A DNA stretch of 64,000 nucleotides from a bacterium (GCA_965233585.1 CBDDTI010000746.1:256001-320000), one strand, 5' to 3'; shown: positions 33,556 to 42,859, counted from the first letter of the stretch. A program made the numbers and translations. Notes: generated from the letters alone by a model not told the origin.

Positions 33556-36500
33556 TTAAATCTCTCCACCAACACCTTTGAATTTGTCAACGAAGGCAGA
33601 GATTTTATCAAAAACGGTTTGTTTTTTCGTGTGATATTGCGGATTAAGGGGACTCATTTTGGGTAGTGCTTCGTTGAGTTCTGTGCCATTTTTGCTGGCA
33701 AATTTTCGTTCCAGTGATTTTTTGATGTAACGTTTTGCCGCTGCATCGTTTAGCTCTTCTTCTTTTATCAGTTCGGTTGCTTCTCTTTGCTGTTCTTGTC
33801 GTGCAAAAGTAAAAAATGCTTCAATCATGCTGGCTTTGTCCTCAAATGTTGCAAAATCAGCCTGATGAATGAAGTCAAGTAACAATCCTTCCTTTGATCT
33901 GTGGTCTAGGCTGGAGCTTATCATGCGTTTGACATCTTCAATCAAAGTGTCTTTGCTTTTGGTCTTTTGGTTTTTCTCAAAAATAAGCTCCAAAATATAA
34001 TCAAGGTCAATTTCTTGGGATTTGAGCAAGTCCACTTCAAACACCACATCGTCCCAATCTATCTTAGACTCGTCTTGTTTCTCTGATGCTCTTTCTTTGA
34101 TGAGCCAATCGCGAATGTCGTTATATGTAGAACGATAGTCTTGAATGGTGCGTTCTGACGGCATTTCTATTGTTTGTATGGTGGCAAAATCGTCATCGCT
34201 TAGATGGTGTTGTTTTTTAAATTCTTCTATCTCATCGGGGTTTTTTGTGTCAAGATTTTGCAAGGTTTTAAGGGTAGTAAACTCATCATAATTTTGCAGC
34301 ACATTTTCTAGCCGTAAGTACTCACCAAATAACTTGACAAATTCTTTTTTATCATCTTCTTTGTCAATTTTAGCAGGGTTAGGAAATCGTTCTTGCAAGT
34401 CCTTCACAACGTCTTTAAAACCTCGTGTCACTTGACCTGTTGCAATGTCTTTAAAGCCTTCCATGTATTCCTGATAGCTTTTCTCCAAGATGACTTGCTC
34501 GGTATGACTCCCACTTTTGCCAAATAATTTGATGGCATCTTTCGTGGCTGGTTCTAGGTTGCGAAAGGTGACAATATTGCCAAAGGTTTTGGTGGCATCA
34601 TAAATGCGGTTGGTGCGGGAAAAGGCTTGAATCAAGCCATGAAAACGCAAATTTTTATCTACAAATAAGGTGTTCAAAGTAGGAGCATCAAAGCCTGTTA
34701 AAAACATTCCTACCACGATTAACAAATCCACTTCTTGAGCCTTCACCCGCTTTGCCAAATCGCGATAATAGTTTTGAAATGCTTGGCTCTCTACACTGAA
34801 GCTAGTTTTAAAATATTCGTTATAATCAGCAATGACTTTGCCTAAAAATTCTTTTGCGGTTTGGTCCCTGGTGATTGTCTCAAAGTCCTCATCTGCAATC
34901 TCACCGATGGCATGTTGTTCTTCGTTGGCAGCAAAGGAAAAGATGGTCGCAATTTTTAGTTTCTTATCGCTGTGTTCTTGCAATGTTTGAAAGGTTTCAT
35001 AATACGATTTGGCGGCATCTATACTGCTGACGGCAAACATGGCATTAAAACCTTTGTTATTGCTTTGCAAGCGGTGCGTCTTGTGATGAAAGTTGTTGAG
35101 GACATACTGCGCAATTTCCTTGATACGATTGGGGTGCAAGAATGCTTTTTTGTCCTCTTCTGCAAAAAATTTTTGCTCATCTTGTTCGGTTTCAATCGCT
35201 TTGAACTGGGGGCGGACATCATTGTAATCTACCTTGAATTTAAGCACTTTTTCATCACGAATAGCATCGGTGATGACATAAGAGTGTAGCTCGCAACCAA
35301 ACACGCTTTGTGTTGTCTCTGCACCTGAGGCGTTGTCAAGAAAAATTGGCGTCCCTGTAAAACCGAATTGATAAAATTGCTTAAACTTCTTTCTTAAGTT
35401 TTTCTGTGCCTCACCAAATTGGCTGCGGTGGCATTCGTCAAAAATAAACACCACTTGCTGATTGTACACGGGCAAGCCTGTTTCACCTTTCATCAGGTTG
35501 TTGAGTTTTTGAATGGTGGTGACGATGATTTTATTGTCATCTTTGCTTAAATTGCGTTTGAGTGCAGCAGTGCTGCTTGAACCGTTGACGCTATCAGGTG
35601 AGAATTTTTGATACTCTTTCATAGTCTGATAATCAAGGTCTTTTCTATCCACCACAAAAAACACCTTGTCAATAAAATTTAATGCTGTTGCCAAACGTGC
35701 GGTCTTAAAGCTGGTTAAGGTTTTTCCTGAACCTGTGGTGTGCCAAATGTAGCCTCCACTTCCTGGCTTACAACTATTTTTTGCTTGATACGAGCTTTGA
35801 ATCTTCCACAAAATGCGTTCAGTCGCAGCGATTTGATAGGGACGCATGACAAGCAAAGTTTCGTTTGCATCAAATACCGAATATTTTAATAACACATGAA
35901 GCAGGGTGTTTTTTTGCAAAAAAGTAGCAGTAAAGTCTTTGAGGTCTTTAATCAAAGTATTGTCAGCCCTTGCCCAATTCATGGTAAAGTCAAAGCTGTT
36001 TTTGTCCCGTTTGGTGGTGTTAGCAAAATAGCGGGTATCCGTGCCGTTGGAGATGACAAAAATTTGCAAATACTTATACAAAGAATTGTCGCTGTTGAAA
36101 CTTTCTTTGCTGTAACGATGGACTTGATTAAAGGCTTCGCGAATGGCAACGCCACGTCTTTTTAGCTCCAAATGCACCAAAGGCAAGCCATTAATCAAAA
36201 TCGTCACATCATAGCGGTTGGCATGGCTACCTGTTTGCTCAAATTGTCCAATCACTTGCAACTTATTCTTAGCGAGATTCTTTTTGTCTAGCAAATAAAT
36301 ATTTTTAATATGTCCGTCATCAAAGACAAAATCATAAATATAGTTATCGTGAATTTTACGTGATTTTTCCTCCAAAATATCGCTGGCTTTATCCAGATAT
36401 TGCTCCACAAATCGTTGCCATTCATCATTAGAAAACTGAACGTCATTTAAGTTTTGTAATTGTGTGCGGACATTGGCAAGCATCGCATCAGGGCTTTTGA

Positions 36501-36657
36501 TATTTTTGCAATACTCATAACCTTGATTTTGCAAATCCTGTATCAATTCACGTTCTAAATCTGCCTCAGTTTGATAACTTGTTGACTGTTCTAGTTCGTC
36601 ATATTTATCCAGAACAATAAAATTATTAGATTCTATGATGGGTTTGTAATGATTCAT
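33556..36657 (-). CDS. hsdR: Type I restriction endonuclease R subunit (EcoR124-like, type IC)
   Basis: [50 protein letters not shown]; start MNHYK after GGAG. Confidence 0.96.
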
Positions 36658-36678
36658 AAGATGATCTCCAGTATTTTT

Positions 36679-36820
36679 AACCACAGATAAACACAGATAA
36701 ACACAGATAAGCTTCACAAAAAACACTATTTAATCTGTGTTCATCGTGTTCATCTGTGGTTTATTCTTAATGTTTTATTACATCTTTTTGACCACAGATG
36801 CACTCAAATTAACACAGACA
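36679..36820. repeat. CCACAGAT palindromic unit plus the left arm of the GxxExxY element
   Basis: AACCACAGATAAACACAGATAAACACAGAT...ATCTGTGTTCATCGTGTTCATCTGTGGTT, then a spacer and ACCACAGATGCACTCAAATTAACACAGAC. Confidence 0.9.
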
Positions 36821-36825
36821 GGTTT

Positions 36826-37203
36826 TCACAGAACCATTCTTTTAATCTGTATTTTAGGTGTGCCAAAGTTAATGATTAATCCCAAAGGGAGTTTTGTTGC
36901 TTTAAGATAGTTGAGAAGCTGGGCTTGATGGATATTGTTCAGAGTTTGTACTGCCTTGATTTCAAGAATCACCTGTTGATTGACCAGAATATCAGCAAAG
37001 TATTCACCAACTACTTGACCTTTGTAGGCAATAGTCATCATCTTTTCTTTTTCTGCTTTTAACCCTGCATCTGCTAATTCAATCATCATGGCATTTTGAT
37101 AGACTTTTTCCAAAAAACCTGCTCCAAGCGTGTTTGATACAGTAAAAGCACAACCAATTACCTCCCCCGAAATATCATTTAATCTGTGTTGTTCTGTATT
37201 CAT
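36826..37203 (-). CDS. GxxExxY protein (PD-(D/E)XK nuclease family)
   Basis: LGAGFLEKVY, ADILV...ILEIK, AQLLNYLK...GLIINFG; 125 aa. Confidence 0.95.
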   Translation of the reverse strand: MNTEQHRLNDISGEVIGCAFTVSNTLGAGFLEKVYQNAMMIELADAGLKAEKEKMMTIAYKGQVVGEYFADILVNQQVILEIKAVQTLNNIHQAQLLNYLKATKLPLGLIINFGTPKIQIKRMVL

Positions 37204-37396
37204 CTTTGTTCTTTTTCAATACTTTTTAATCCGTGTTCATCTGTGGTTTATTCTTAATGTTTTATTACGTCTTTTTAACCACAGATGGACTCAGATCAAC
37301 ACAGATAATGTATCACAGAATCTTCTTTTAATCTGCGTTTATCAGTGTTTATCTGTGGTTTTTTCAATACTATTTCATCTGTACTCATTTGTGGTT
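37180..37396. repeat. CCACAGAT palindromic arms: right arm of the GxxExxY element, a miniature unit and extra half-arms
   Basis: Arms at 37180-37210, 37227-37248, 37277-37360 (full hairpin) and 37376-37396. Confidence 0.9.
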
Positions 37397-37404
37397 CTTT
37401 TCAA

Positions 37405-37875
37405 TTAAATAGTAATAAAATTAAGCCGATGATTTTCTTGAATCAAGGATTTCATTGAATGTAAGGCTTGGTCAAATGCTTTTTTGTTTTGCAAAAGGCG
37501 TTGCTGATTGATGGTGTAGCCAGCCACCAAATGCTGTTTAAGAATGCCTGTTGCCCATTGGCGAAACTGCACACCACGTTGAGATTTCACACGATAACCA
37601 ACTGAAATAATCACATCAAGATTGTAATAATCTACTTGGTATATTTTGCCATCTTTGGCAGTTGTTGCATTTTTTGCAACAACTGCGGAACGTTCTAATT
37701 CTTGCTCATTAAGCAGATTTCGCAGATGACGGGATATGACTGATTTATCGTGTTCAAATAATTGCGACATCTGGTCTAGGCTAAGCCATACGGTCTCATT
37801 GTCTAGGGTAACTTTTAGCTCAAGTTGCCCGTCCTTAGATTGATAGATTTGGATTTGTTGTAGGTGGCTAGACAT
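37405..37875 (-). CDS. RhuM-like DNA-binding domain protein, probably 3'-truncated
   Basis: ETVWLS..QM..LF, YNLDVIISVGYRVKSQRGVQFRQWA; ends next to the repeat cluster. Confidence 0.85.
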   Translation of the reverse strand: MSSHLQQIQIYQSKDGQLELKVTLDNETVWLSLDQMSQLFEHDKSVISRHLRNLLNEQELERSAVVAKNATTAKDGKIYQVDYYNLDVIISVGYRVKSQRGVQFRQWATGILKQHLVAGYTINQQRLLQNKKAFDQALHSMKSLIQENHRLNFITI

Positions 37876-37878
37876 GGA

Positions 37879-39444
37879 TTATTTCACTTGGTTGCTGATT
37901 TTGAAATCTAAAAAAGATATATTCTTGCTTTTGAGTTCTTTTAGATATTCTTGACCCTCAGGGATGTTTGATTTGTCACTAGCATGCTCGTATAAAAACA
38001 GCCAAAAGCGATCTTGTTCTCGCTTATCACTTGTTTTTATTTCTTCTACTTTACAGTCAAAAAGACGTGATTTTAATCTAAACTTTTTGGTGTACTTCCA
38101 TGCCAATAGGATAGAGATACAATCATTATATTCTATAACCTTTTCTCTCCATTTCTTAGAAAGTTTACTAATTTTCACTCCATATTTAATTGCAAAATAA
38201 AAACAAAAAGACAAAGCATCAGTCTGTCCCCTTTCTATGGACTGACGAAACAATAAGGGTAGGAAAACTTTGATTGACTGTTGTTGATTGCTAGCAAAAA
38301 TCAAAACAAACCCTTCTAGTAATGGAATCAAATACGGATACAATAAAGACAAAGAAAGGATTTTCTTAACATATAATTTTTTCGCTCTGTCGGACAGACT
38401 CTTTTTAGAGATAACTTTAATGGCGTAATTAACTGGGGCAAAGTCATCATAGTCTTTGGCTATTGAGATAGCTAAGTTTAAGTAAGCATTTATTGAATTA
38501 AAACCTATTTTCTCTTTATCTGGAAAATTAAATTGATTGAGTTTTTGAGTCCATACACTCTCGTGATATTCAATAAGAGTGCAAATTGAAGTTTTCTTTT
38601 GGTTAAGTAGTAACTCATACTCCTTTAAAGCTAACTCCAATGTTTTAAGAAAGTTGTTAGCATTGTTCTCATCTTCAGCAAAATAAGTATAGTCATCAAT
38701 ATAGCGAATAACTTTTTTAAACCCCTTTTCTTGTAAGATATAATCTACAGAAGTTAGGATTATTTCAGAAACAATATTTGACGTGTGAGGGCCGATTAAA
38801 AGCCCATTAGTCTGTGAGTCGTTACAGTTTCTCACATCTCTATCCAAATTATTTGACCAGTGTGATTTTTCATCTTTGTTTTTTCTATTAGTTGGAAATC
38901 GTTTTTCTTTAGCTTCGTCTTTTCCTTGTATTGCCCAAGGAATTGAGTGGGTATAAATACTTGGAAAGCAAGTTGAAATATCTGCCTTCACTACATATTC
39001 GCAACCTAAGCAATAATCTTGTTCACACTCTTCTTTTTTCCACTTTTCCCACCCTTCATAACTCATTTCAAAAATATGCTTCTTACCTTTAATTTTTCTA
39101 ACATGGCAAAAATTGAATTTAGTTTTTGGCTTGCCTATGTGTTCATTAATAGATGTCCAATATTTTTCAATTGTTTTACACAAGTGCATGTGAGATTCTG
39201 GGTGAGGTATTGCTAATTGTCTGGAAATGCCTTTATTTCTGGTTGCCATATATGAAATGCTTGCATGCGCACAACGTTTAGAACCATTAGTCTTAAAATC
39301 AAAATCTAGTAAAAAATTTGATGAAAAACAGGGGGGTAGTTTATCGGCAAACATACCATATCCTAGCAATGCTGTATAGACATCTTCGGCATCTATAAGA
39401 TCAATATATGCTAGAGAGAAAATACTTATACCTTTATAGTTCAT
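37879..39444 (-). CDS. Reverse transcriptase, Abi/UG (DRT-like, candidate DRT4) with helical C-terminal domain
   Basis: [42 protein letters not shown], catalytic RYIDD, LNQKKT; visibly AT-richer than the flanks. Confidence 0.9.
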
Positions 39445-39519
39445 TAATAAATTACGATAATATTCATATTGCTTTTGTCTTAGCTCAATCTCACGCGGTA
39501 GCCCTTCGCTGATGCTATT
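39442..39519 (-). pseudogene. Duplicated hsdS 3' segment, in frame with the RT
   Basis: Reads [26 protein letters not shown], the same as the HsdS C-terminus at about 39698-39775. Confidence 0.9.
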
Positions 39520-39520
39520 T

Positions 39521-39674
39521 TTGTTTATCTGTGGCTTTTTCCTAATGCTTTATTACGTCTTTTTGACCACAGATAAACACAAAAAACACAGATGATGCGT
39601 CACAGAATCTTTTTTAATCAGTGTTCATCTATGTTCATCGGTGGTTAAAAAATCATCTACTTTCATCTGTGGTT
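39521..39674. repeat. CCACAGAT palindromic arms between hsdS and the RT
   Basis: Half-arm 39521-39535, hairpin 39566-39646, half-arm 39654-39674 overlapping the hsdS stop. Confidence 0.9.
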
Positions 39675-40912
39675 ACTTCCTCTGGTTTTGGAAAGCTCAT
39701 CAATAAATTACGATAATATTCATATTGCTTTTGACGCAATTCAATCTCACGCGGTAGTCCTTCGCTGATGCTATTGCTCAAAGTGTCAAATCGGTCAAGA
39801 ATGTCAACAATCTTTTGCTGAATTTGCAACGATTTTTCTGGGTTGTCGGGGCAGGGGATTGGAAATTTAGTATCTTTAATCATCGGTTTAGTGAGCTGGG
39901 GAATGCCCGCCTCTGGCACCTTATAATTTTTCTCAATAGTTTTCATAAAATAATAAGCATACTTCAAATTTATGTTGATTTTTGGAGTTAGCACTAACAA
40001 ACGAATTATTGGAAAAATAGGATAATCTCTGTAACTTGTCCAACCTATCGTACCTCTAGCTGATATAGTTAAACTTGGCTCATTCAACTTTGCTTCTTTT
40101 GTCCATCCATATAATGATTTCTCACCTATTCCGTTAGATAAAATAGGCACATTAAACTGCTCTGTTTCTATATCTGAAAATGCGTCTTTTGGTTTATCGC
40201 CACCAGCAAAGATACTAAAAACCTCCCCCAATGTTTTCCATTCTACCCTTGCACCGTCTAGTAGTTTTTGTAAAAAGGGTATCTGTGTTAATCCGTGTTT
40301 ATTTGTGGTTGAAAAATCTAATAATCTATCGCGATAATAACTATACTGCTTTTTACGTGCTGTAAGCTCTGCTGTAAGCTCTGCTGTAAGCTCTGCTGTA
40401 AGCGTAGTGAACTTATCCAAAATGTCAACTATTTTTTGCTGAATTTGTAAAGATTTTTCTGGATTTTCTGGGCAGGGAATTGGGATTTTTATTTTTTCTA
40501 CCTGATGGCTCATCAATTTTGGATTACCCATTCCAGAATAAACATGTTTTTGTGCTTCAATTGAAAGCCAGTAGAACAAAAATTTATAATTTAAAATAGA
40601 GATACTATCAATCTTTATTAAACCACAGACATTTGTAATAGAAAATTTTTCATTGCGGTAAAAAACAGTTCCTGCGTTTGCTCCATCCGTTGTCCATGTT
40701 ACAAATTCACCTTCGAAATCAAATGTGTTAATTTTACCTATCATTCCATTATTTGCTGTTTGTGAACTATAAACAGGATAGTTACCAGCATTATCAGTTA
40801 AATAACTTTTTGACATTACACGCCCCCTTTTTAAATCACAAACCTCTCCCAATGTTTTCCATTCTACCTTTGCGCCGTTGAGTAGGTTTTGTAAAAAGAT
40901 TTGTTTATTCAT
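39653..40912 (-). CDS. hsdS: Type I R-M specificity subunit (type IC)
   Basis: Two TRDs each starting [13 protein letters not shown] repeats, [17 protein letters not shown]. Confidence 0.95.
40359..40403. repeat. 12-bp tandem repeat encoding TAEL in hsdS
   Basis: GCTGTAAGCTCT three times plus a partial copy. Confidence 0.95.
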
Positions 40913-41894
40913 CGTGATTGATATTGTGTTTTTGCATGATGATAGATGCCATTAATTCTTCTTCAGTAGGTAAAATAGTTTGGTATTTTGAAGCGAATAG
41001 TTGTTTATTTTCTTTCAGTATAGAGTATTTAACGATGGTTTCGTCTTTACTGGCACATAGTATGATTCCAATACTTGGATTATCATCTTTGTTTCTTTTT
41101 AAGTCATCAAACATGCGTACATACATGTCCATTTGCCCAATATCTTGGTGAGTAAGTTTGGTTGTTTTAAGGTCTATCACAACAAAGCATTTTAACAAAT
41201 AATTGTAAAACACAAGGTCAATATAAAAGTGAGATGTTTCGGTGCTAATTCTCATTTGTTGAGCAACAAAAGAAAATCCTTTGCCCATTTCAAGTAAAAA
41301 CTCTTTTAGTTCATCAATAATGGCTTGTTCCAATGCGGATTCTTGCAGTTTTATCTGTTCAGGTAATTGCAAAAATTCCAAGACATAAGGGTCTTTGATA
41401 AAATCAAGTAGCTGTTCGTTTTTAGAAGATTTTTTTACTTTCTGTGTTGAAAGCAGTCGGGCGTAATAATTTGATTTGATATTGCGTTCTAGTTGGCGAA
41501 CGCTCCAATTTTCTGTGCGGCTTTCTTTGCAATAATATTCAACGGTTTTCGCATCATCTATACGCATAATTAACCTGAGGTGGCTCCAACTTAATTCTCT
41601 ACACAGTGTGTAGAGTTTTTCTTGGTGTGGAAATTTGAGGTAAAACTGTCTGCAATTATAAAGATTTGCATAAGAAAACCCCTTGCCAAAATCAAATTTC
41701 AAAGCACTTGAAAGCTCTTCCATAAGCCGTTTGCCATACTTTGCCTTGCTTTCACCATTTTGCTCTTCTACTACTATCCTTTTGCCTATTAACCAATACG
41801 CTTCAACCATAGCAGCATTGATAGCCGAACGCGTTTTGGATCTTGCATTTTGCAAAATACTTTTTATATCAGCGTAAAAATCTTTATTGATCAT
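40905..41894 (-). CDS. YhcG/DUF1016 PD-(D/E)XK nuclease-domain protein
   Basis: [48 protein letters not shown]. Confidence 0.93.
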
Positions 41895-41896
41895 GT

Positions 41897-42048
41897 TTAA
41901 AGCTCCTGTGTTTTAAATTCGCTGTAGCCTTCATAGTAATAGCTGACGTCAATGCCTTTCATAAAGAGGTTTCGGTCATGGATTTGGTTGGTGAGTGCAT
42001 CTTTGAGCAGTGTTTTGATTTCAAGGTCTTTGACGGGGCTTCGTTGCA
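41897..42048 (-). pseudogene. 3' remnant of a Fic-family (adenylyltransferase-like) gene cut by IS1
   Basis: QRSPVKDLEIKTLLKDALT...FMKGIDVSYYYEGY resembles the C-terminus of Fic proteins found in type I R-M loci; abuts the IS end. Confidence 0.7.
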
Positions 42049-42056
42049 GGCAGTGT

Positions 42057-42444
42057 TCACTTGATATTGTCATGATATTTTTCAAACCTTTTATAGTCAA
42101 AGAAGAGTTGTAGAGAGTGTTCCAGCATGTCAAAAGTTTTGGAATGTCGTTTAGATTTTCTCATCAAGCGAGCTAGGTTATCTCTGATGGAAGAATTAGA
42201 AGATTCAATGAGATGAGTGTTGTCTTTGCCTATCTGATGCTTTTGTGGAATTTGGAGTTGTGCAAATGCCACTTGATAGCATGAGTTGGCATCTGTATAA
42301 ATCGTTTCAATTCTAGCTCGTTGTGCTTTGACTAGTGCATACAGCTGCTTTGCTGCTGCTAATCCTTTGCCTATCACAAAGGCAATCACACATTGTTCTT
42401 GACGAGAATAGGCTGTCCAAACAGCTACTCTTTGGCTTTTTTTT
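42057..42444 (-). CDS. insB: IS1 InsB-like DDE ORF reached by -1 frameshift
   Basis: A8 slippery run at 42437-42444; the -1 frame reads VWTAYSR...IYTD...THLIESSNSSIR. Confidence 0.85.
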
Positions 42445-42772
42445 GAACAAAAGTGTAGATCTCATCCATCTCTATACTATCTACTTGTGCATGGAAACTT
42501 GGTGCGTCTTTTGGAAGTTGAGACACTCTAGCTTTTTTGATCCAGTTGACAATTGAAGCGGGAGACACCTGCAAAAAACGAGCGATCTTTCTGATGCCTA
42601 CACTATTGACATACATCTCTGAGGCTTGACGCTTGGTCTCTAGTGGGATTCTCAAACCATTTGAGGTGAATGCTCTCTGACATGACTTGCAACGATACCT
42701 CTGAACCCCTTTGTAACTTCCATTCTTGATATAAGTCTGACTCCCACAATGATGACAACTTCTCATTTCCAT
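42425..42772 (-). CDS. insA: IS1 InsA-like ORF (zinc finger plus HTH)
   Basis: CHHC...KNG...QRYRCKSC, GIRKIAR, EMDEIYTFV. Confidence 0.9.
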   Translation of the reverse strand: MEMRSCHHCGSQTYIKNGSYKGVQRYRCKSCQRAFTSNGLRIPLETKRQASEMYVNSVGIRKIARFLQVSPASIVNWIKKARVSQLPKDAPSFHAQVDSIEMDEIYTFVQKKAKE

Positions 42773-42859
42773 TCCTCAAATTCACTCTCACATGCAATGA
42801 CAATACCAACTAAACACTGCCCTGCTAAGGGGGGTCAAGTGAAGAAATTAGGAAAAAAG

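Follow-up and report, generated by a model that had tools for sequence, protein, structure and literature searches.

The 64,000-nucleotide (nt) stretch of bacterial DNA analysed here (GCA_965233585.1 CBDDTI010000746.1:256001-320000; the window) contains drt4, a gene for a DRT4/UG15-type defence reverse transcriptase (RT), within a type IC (EcoR124-like) hsd operon of a restriction-modification (R-M) system. The genes lie on the minus strand in the order yhcG-hsdS-(relic)-drt4-rhuM'-GxxExxY-hsdR, and the relic is a 26-codon block repeating the C-terminal end of HsdS, with the first ATG of the RT frame as its last codon. This block is probably a recombination scar: the locus would once have held another copy of its own type IC hsdS, immediately before drt4, of which only this dead fragment is left. 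The fragment would now form the untranslated 5′ leader of drt4, and it is very probably not a programmed switch. The features on which this reading is based are the following.

39653..40912, minus strand: hsdS, type IC, 419 amino acids (aa)
39694..39775, minus strand: resident copy of an 82-nt repeat, inside the intact hsdS (second conserved region)
39520..39652, minus strand: element A, 133 nt, a decayed GxxExxY cassette whose 5′ end is joined to its 3′ end, with the open reading frame (ORF) lost and two hairpins
39550..39555, minus strand: TAA TAA in frame, closing the RT frame upstream of the relic
39442..39519, minus strand: hsdS relic, a copy of hsdS codons 380-405 (NSISEG...YYRNLLM)
39421..39441, minus strand: RT codons 2-8; the +1 frame reads ACT ATA AAG GTA TAA (TIKV-stop)
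37879..39444, minus strand: drt4 (DRT4/UG15-type reverse transcriptase), 521 aa from ATG 39444

A repeat search identified a direct repeat of 82 nt, at 39438-39519 and 39694-39775, with copies that are 90% identical and 256 nt apart, in agreement with the original prediction of two repeats of ∼78 base pairs (bp) spaced by ∼255 bp. Within it, the 78-nt block 39519-39442 and hsdS codons 380-405 (39775-39698) encode the same 26-codon peptide. The predicted identity to the HsdS C-terminus, with synonymous differences only, was borne out both by the repeat search and by codon comparison: the relic and the resident copy differ at seven bases, and all seven differences are synonymous. In simulations, seven randomly placed substitutions were all synonymous in a fraction of 1e-5 of 200,000 trials (7.5e-5 with transition bias). 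Five of the seven differences are clustered in three adjacent codons, which read GAG CTA AGA in the relic and GAA TTG CGT in the resident gene, and the longest run of identity between the copies is 32 nt. The last codon of the block, ATG 39444-39442, opens the 521-aa ORF of the RT; the ORF call and the codon reading thus confirm that the Met of 'LLM' in HsdS corresponds to the first ATG of the RT. There is no ATG, GTG or TTG in frame from ATG 39444 up to TAA TAA at 39555-39550. Just upstream of the relic, at 39535-39523, lies GCCACAGATAAAC, a truncated cassette arm, and both this arm and the in-frame stop codons further upstream are where they had been predicted. The hsdS and RT frames are one base apart; therefore, readthrough of the hsdS stop does not enter the RT.

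The origin of the relic is best understood from other genomes, in some of which hsdS and drt4 are adjacent; by this comparison, it is best read as the last part of an hsdS that was formerly next to drt4. Drt4 loci were collected by an alignment-based scan with one genome per species, which yielded 80, and by a metagenome scan, which added 4 at ≤52% identity. Of these, 83 were analysed and L106, which comprises only the C-terminal end, was omitted (L025 and L105 represent one contig, L088 and L089 are almost identical, and start codons were assigned mechanically). An upstream neighbor, for which an ORF had to be at least 80 aa long and to end no more than 900 nt from the Drt4 match, was present in 78 of the 83 loci, and in 23 of these 78 it was a co-oriented hsdS. 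In 22 of the 23, the first in-frame Drt4 start is located −23 to +10 nt from the hsdS stop, with a 4-nt ATGA/GTGA overlap in seven; as the stop of one gene touches the start of the next, their translation is probably coupled. The downstream neighbor was hsdR in 15 of the 22 hsdS-drt4 loci scanned (in L070 there is no downstream ORF). The hsdS genes found beside Drt4 elsewhere belong to several other type I families, and none has the QYEYYR tail. Further Drt4 neighbors are often R-M or defence genes (Eco57I/TaqI_C in six cases, MmeI in two, GmrSD in two, and DUF499 in three). These Drt4 homologs that touch or overlap hsdS, together with a rare Met residue that is common to the relic and the resident HsdS (see below), support the earlier proposal of an ancestral hsdS-RT junction as the source of the RT. 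A discussion of hsdS-drt4 adjacency was not found in the DRT4 literature consulted (PMC12783706, bioRxiv 10.64898/2026.10.21.760695 and PMC9226505, supplementary tables aside).

The closest Drt4 homolog, P0002 (protein sequence only), is 61% identical and 574 aa long and carries an in-frame N-terminal extension, so that 80 residues precede the conserved Tyr of the RT family. In the extension, a weak HSDR_N match (E 0.016) precedes the end, ...KQKRGLMQKLLTGEWRI, which is joined straight to ...LEYPDL. The segment KQKRGLMQKLLTGEWRI resembles the C-terminus of the HsdS that is located beside the Drt4 of L103 (KTQKRGLMQKMLTGEWRV), and the extension appears to be another scar of this type, of independent origin. 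No closer relatives of the locus were found among 40 relatives in a DNA search. Among plasmids, full-length Drt4 matches reached 25% identity at best, and thus none was close.

The type IC character and the tail of the resident HsdS were established by comparison with EcoR124II HsdS. The two proteins match with an E-value of 4.2e-51 and align to the ends of both (residue 403 of 404 in the chain), the end of the EcoR124II chain (...YYRDLLFSFPKPETVS) aligning with the C-terminal end of the HsdS described here. In this alignment, the resident tail MSFPKPEEV falls on the last residues of EcoR124II HsdS (LLFSFPKPETVS); the relic, which has neither a native tail nor a stop, is therefore a remnant whose junction with drt4 was changed. 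In the resident gene, SFPKPEEV is native to the family, and the 5′ end of a GxxExxY cassette supplies the final residues, TTDESR-stop. For type IC HsdS tails, the 80 best hsdS 3′ ends from other species were collected. The residue that follows YYRxLL in these tails is Leu in 70 and Phe in 9 of 79, and Met in none. Both the resident HsdS and the relic contain Met after YYRNLL. This shared rare residue indicates that they are sister copies, or that the stretch was exchanged between them by conversion. The tail of the dead gene may also be traced in the +1 frame of RT codons 2-8, where TIKV-stop can be compared with ...PKPETV-stop in L114 and ...PKEEV-stop in L172. From this comparison, a loss of 16 nt (the SFPKPE codons) would give the exact sequence seen and would shift the hsdS frame into the drt4 frame.

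From these comparisons we infer the following order of events. The starting point would be the arrangement in which drt4 commonly stands directly behind hsdS in type I operons. Illegitimate recombination would then have reduced this hsdS to 26 codons by placing ahead of it an intact hsdS that carried both a native tail and a GxxExxY cassette. A small deletion in the tail of the dead gene (∼16 nt, the SFPKPE codons) would have put the remnant in frame with drt4, and the Met codon of the in-frame remnant would thus have become the first ATG of the RT frame.

According to the original prediction, recombination between the two repeats could also create an HsdS-RT fusion or a switch, and this part found no support. 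In its explicit form, RecA-type recombination would delete 256 bp and fuse HsdS 1-405 to Drt4 in frame, either tethering the RT to the methyltransferase/restriction complex or turning HsdS off. The repeats are indeed direct, in the correct register and with a 32-nt identical run, the resulting fusion would be in frame, and hsdS and drt4 are closely linked in many genomes. However, an HsdS-RT fusion was not found among proteins: precomputed Pfam assignments for 16 longer Drt4 relatives (917-947 aa) list PF00078 only and no Methylase_S, and in all 11 of those scanned, the RT is N-terminal (residues ∼143-287) with the extra length at the C-terminus. When the stop-to-stop ORF comprising the relic and the RT (556 aa) was compared with 1.84 billion representatives, 3925 matches were obtained, and the relic was aligned in none of the best 150, in which the aligned part never began before query position 41 (the Met is residue 36). 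In-frame hsdS remnants before Drt4 were short ones only, here and in P0002. The stretch was also present in assembled contigs of five sequencing runs from two studies, of which four were examined (X1, X2, X3 and X5). The 284-nt unitig between the repeats had the same depth as its flanks (6.0 versus 6.2 and 5.9; 3.9 versus 3.3 and 3.7), the unitigs break at the 32-nt identical run, as expected, and no joint across the 256 nt was present in the contigs of the four runs, which at a depth of 2-6x and with rare variants dropped excludes only a major allele. No inverted copies of hsdS were found, and a scan of eight ORFs from 33.5 to 42.8 kb revealed no recombinase domain. With hsdM located ∼65 kb away, the operon is in any case already disrupted. 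We therefore regard a working switch as very improbable. The same low probability applies to the idea that the in-frame relic has been kept since rare repeat recombination yields an HsdS(1-405)-Drt4 fusion on the type I complex or, more broadly, that Drt4 may guard type I restriction like PrrC. If true, PrrC-like guarding would explain the frequent translational coupling of hsdS and drt4.

Another explanation concerns the source of the relic, which could have come in together with drt4 and rhuM' as one ∼2.1-kb fragment of a foreign type IC locus with neighboring hsdS and drt4. Divergence by synonymous changes only, with double changes in Leu and Arg codons, suggests two functional alleles that were separate for a while. 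Moreover, rhuM' and the full-length rhuM next to hsdM share only 43% identity, so that rhuM' is foreign to the operon's other rhuM, and type IC hsdS is present in only 2 of 64 genomes of the order (a search with the HsdS C-terminus matched only the genome itself and G007), so the whole locus is mobile. Against this stands the Met after YYRNLL, common to the resident gene and the relic and absent from the 79 other type IC tails, although conversion could have copied it either way; an origin by import seems unlikely to us. A further point bears both on import and on the scar of a local hsdS copy, which remains our preferred reading: no Drt4 homolog was present within 3 kb downstream in any of the 80 type IC hsdS loci, so that a long-standing junction of type IC hsdS with drt4 is seen only here. 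Several other observations also weigh against the scar. If the five clustered differences arose in one conversion event, only about three events are left and the evidence for selection would be much weaker. The 16-nt deletion would be read from four codons (TIKV-stop) and a general similarity of tails. The nearest Drt4 loci with DNA are only ∼52% identical, and no intermediate stage was observed among them. Finally, recombination is possible between repeats that share a 32-nt identical run, and a rare deletion allele is compatible with contigs of 2-6x depth. A separate issue is whether the scar supplies the start codon. When the RT was aligned with its 59 best relatives, of which 57 include the N-terminus, the conserved N-terminal motif of the family was (L/A)(G/A)YPDL, preceded by 4-12 residues before the conserved Tyr in 43 of the 57, exactly 5 in 20 (the mode) and more than 12 in 14; there are 12 here. 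ATG 39444 is the sole canonical start before this motif, and no Shine-Dalgarno or purine-rich stretch precedes it. The modal position, five residues before the Tyr, is occupied by codon 8, ATT 39423-39421, and ahead of it are AAAGG at 39435-39431, 7 nt upstream, the +1-frame TAA 39428-39426 and then 2 nt. In L059, L083 and L103, the hsdS stop and the drt4 start are joined as TAA-NN-ATG, and AAAGG-TAA-NN-ATT can be read as the geometry of a former junction of this type. Hence, translation might start at ATT 39423, the ancestral position, with the relic ATG not in use and in frame by accident. ATT is a rare and weak start codon, and the 14 homologs with more than 12 residues before the Tyr demonstrate that a longer N-terminus is tolerated. 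Together with the position of ATG 39444 as the only canonical start, this leads us to consider the ATT start possible, on the less probable side. Of the earlier claim that the relic supplies the RT start, the part concerning the only canonical ATG thus holds, and the homolog alignment sets against it a competing start at codon 8; the relic Met is possibly the start codon in use.

The RT itself belongs to the DRT4/UG15 type. Its residues 12-516 align with positions 7-504 of the 506 in the PADLOC Drt4 profile (8.6e-155), and residues 22-512 of 521 align with solved UG15/DRT4 chains (4.5e-49); in both the profile and the structure-chain alignments the C-terminal alpha-repeat domain is continuous with the RT. 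Drt4 is by far the top family for this RT in NCBIfam and PADLOC. The score against the NCBIfam Drt4 model is 383.7 bits, below the equivalog cut-off of 450, and the protein is therefore called a DRT4-type RT and not an equivalog of the Escherichia coli protein. Among 51 aligned sequences, D155, H166, D201, D250 and D251 are invariant, and Y129 is nearly so. The YxDD motif is formed by VIRYIDDY at 245-252; this motif and the upstream catalytic Asp are aligned to ryiddyt and adisgcf of the UG15 structure chain, and Y129 (EMSYEG) aligns with the Tyr of iiMNYed in chain 9vdo_A. In the reports on studied DRT4 proteins, the catalytic Asp149, the YxDD Asp240/241, the priming Tyr125 and the RNase HD pair H160/D192 are described (PMC12783706; bioRxiv 10.64898/2026.10.21.760695), and by alignment the residues listed above would map onto the priming Tyr125 and the other residues of the studied enzyme. 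The Drt4-like proteins of 917-947 aa (P0121-P0136) are 31-37% identical, with an N-terminal RT and ∼400 C-terminal residues that have no Pfam match.

The internal architecture of the resident hsdS has additional features. In its central conserved region, a 12-bp tandem repeat TGCTGTAAGCTC (40358-40403, three listed copies in 12-nt steps) encodes a TAEL repeat, and EcoR124II aligns with one TAEL unit fewer. In EcoR124-type enzymes, the spacer length within the recognition site is determined by how many TAEL units are present, which is a hallmark of type IC. Compared with EcoR124II, the HsdS contains ∼20 extra residues between its halves, including a second copy of an N-terminal stretch (40219-40330 versus 40840-40912), and the gene looks like two half-hsdS units joined via a cassette-like linker. 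In one contig of run X1 (depth 3, side 30), a joint from 39859 to 40350 was observed inside hsdS, between internal repeats.

The remaining features of the locus are as follows.

42049..42821, minus strand: IS1-family element, separating the half-operon from hsdM
41897..42048, minus strand: fic 3′ fragment, cut by IS1
40905..41894, minus strand: yhcG (DUF1016 / PDDEXK), upstream of hsdS
37405..37875, minus strand: rhuM', N-terminal 156 aa only
37204..37404, minus strand: element B, a second decayed GxxExxY cassette with double hairpin
36826..37203, minus strand: intact GxxExxY (PD-(D/E)XK) gene, the genome's only copy
36658..36825, minus strand: 3′ hairpin of the intact cassette and partial cassette C2, up to the hsdR ribosome-binding site
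33556..36657, minus strand: hsdR, type IC (EcoR124_C domain), likely start ATG 36657

HsdR contains the EcoR124 C-terminal domain PF12008 (4.6e-66), and rhuM' encodes 156 aa compared with ∼330-350 aa in full-length relatives. A gap of at least 900 nt between the hsdS stop and hsdR is present in 56 of the 80 type IC loci, so the slot between the two genes is usually occupied. A RhuM relative was found in 24 of the 80, upstream of hsdS or in this slot, and GxxExxY was found downstream in 2. A scan for promoters and terminators between 36600 and 40000 was uninformative, with 12 promoter-like sites against 13.4 expected and one terminator-like site against 1.4 expected.

The locus contains three to four copies of the GxxExxY cassette, only one of which has kept its ORF. 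Elements A, B and C2 can be aligned mutually and to both ends of the intact GxxExxY gene, and they represent cassettes in which the ORF between two ACAGATTAAA repeats is lost and the 5′ leader (AACCACAGATGAAC...) and the 3′ hairpin are retained. Each folds into two adjacent hairpins (z-scores of −4.7, −6.2 and −4.5); no Rfam family matched them at gathering score, and a 26-nt pattern taken from the hairpin loop had no match in the genome contigs. The relic begins directly after a truncated cassette arm, and the truncated rhuM' ends shortly before the next cassette. The hsdS tail, too, is formed by the cassette 5′ motif AACCACAGATGAAC, and the linker that joins the hsdS halves (40266-40315) is similar to this motif. 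Cassettes, intact or decayed, are located behind type IC hsdS genes in L148, L155 and G007 as well. In the unrelated genome L148, an intact GxxExxY gene, 73% identical, overlaps the end of hsdS by 13 nt, giving a tail of ...DEGTTDERR-stop, and two type IC hsdS genes of G007, from the same family, are followed by related cassette remnants. The flank motif also recurs at a GxxExxY homolog in G038.

Two other identities were considered for the elements and rejected. Integron-like cassette sites do not apply: the arms (GTTYATCTGTGG / CCACAGATRAAC) misfit the attC core by eye, there is no integrase, and the elements are GxxExxY genes without the ORF. Genome-wide repeats, either repetitive extragenic palindromes or miniature inverted-repeat transposable elements, were likewise discarded, as counts of the element 13-mer with one mismatch (24 + 36) were near those of controls (20 + 25), and the exact copies, five in the 12-Mb assembly, are all confined to this locus. 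As a separate observation, contig depth was 2-10 times higher over the ACAGATAAAC repeats upstream of hsdR (36589-36777; runs X1, X3 and X5). Loose contig ends there contain other ACAGATAAAC-rich sequence; similar repeats therefore occur in other contexts in the same samples.

The operon is split. The window contains no hsdM, and the best hsdM of the genome is ∼65 kb away on the other strand, where the next genes are a full rhuM, a small ORF and the 5′ portion of fic, which is interrupted by a second IS1 (G000:C746:365596-366367, corresponding to L102 7597-8368) that is ∼67 kb from the IS1 at 42049-42821. The two fic halves have the 9-bp sequence TGCAACGAA in common, inverted, at like IS1 ends, and the other two IS1 ends likewise share CCTTAGCAG. 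Flipping the ∼67-kb segment between the IS1 copies would restore the order hsdM-rhuM-X-fic-yhcG-hsdS-...-hsdR, and the operon was evidently once whole. The two IS1 copies have the same orientation in the contig despite the inverted 9-bp targets, and no single standard event was found to explain this arrangement.

In summary, the block in front of drt4 belongs to ordinary genome archaeology, and it provides a clear example of the shuffling of defence genes inside type I restriction operons. The joints of this shuffling are the conserved 3′ end of hsdS and small repeated cassettes, and a gene may borrow its start codon from the wreck of its neighbor. About 3 in 10 Drt4 loci have hsdS upstream, mostly followed by hsdR downstream, which raises the question of cooperation, as for PrrC with EcoprrI.

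Several known systems share features with the locus described here. Like studied DRT4/UG15 proteins, to which it is ∼30% identical, the RT has a full-length profile and structure match, the YIDD motif, the palm Asp, the Tyr aligned with MNY, and a His and an Asp corresponding to the RNase HD pair (H160 and D192). DRT4 is treated as a single-gene system in the reports consulted (PMC12783706; bioRxiv 10.64898/2026.10.21.760695), whereas the RT here is located inside a type IC hsd operon and takes its first ATG from an hsdS remnant. The HsdS resembles the type IC proteins of EcoR124I/II through its C-terminal tail and in its TAEL repeat. Known shuffling in type IC HsdS swaps target-recognition domains between whole genes, unlike the 26-codon fragment here, which lies outside the gene and before another gene. 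Such shuffling of modules in type IC hsdS was reportedly described in Gubler 1992 and Abadjieva 1993. As in phase-variable hsdS invertons and shufflons, an extra partial hsdS copy is found beside an active hsdS. Those systems use inverted repeats and a site-specific recombinase (PMC7672463), in contrast to the 82-nt direct repeats of our locus, which do not include a target-recognition domain and have no recombinase gene nearby. For PrrC and TgvAB, the sources consulted do not describe a leftover hsdS end fused to the embedded gene, which distinguishes them from drt4. PrrC is also an anticodon nuclease restrained by the R-M complex; a link of this type is not known for Drt4. With respect to genomic position, the prrC gene of the type IC ecoprrI locus and tgvAB of the type I locus on Vibrio cholerae VPI-2 offer parallels, as both are non-R-M defence genes located between hsd genes, like drt4 in the present operon (PMC12707154; PMC11411939).

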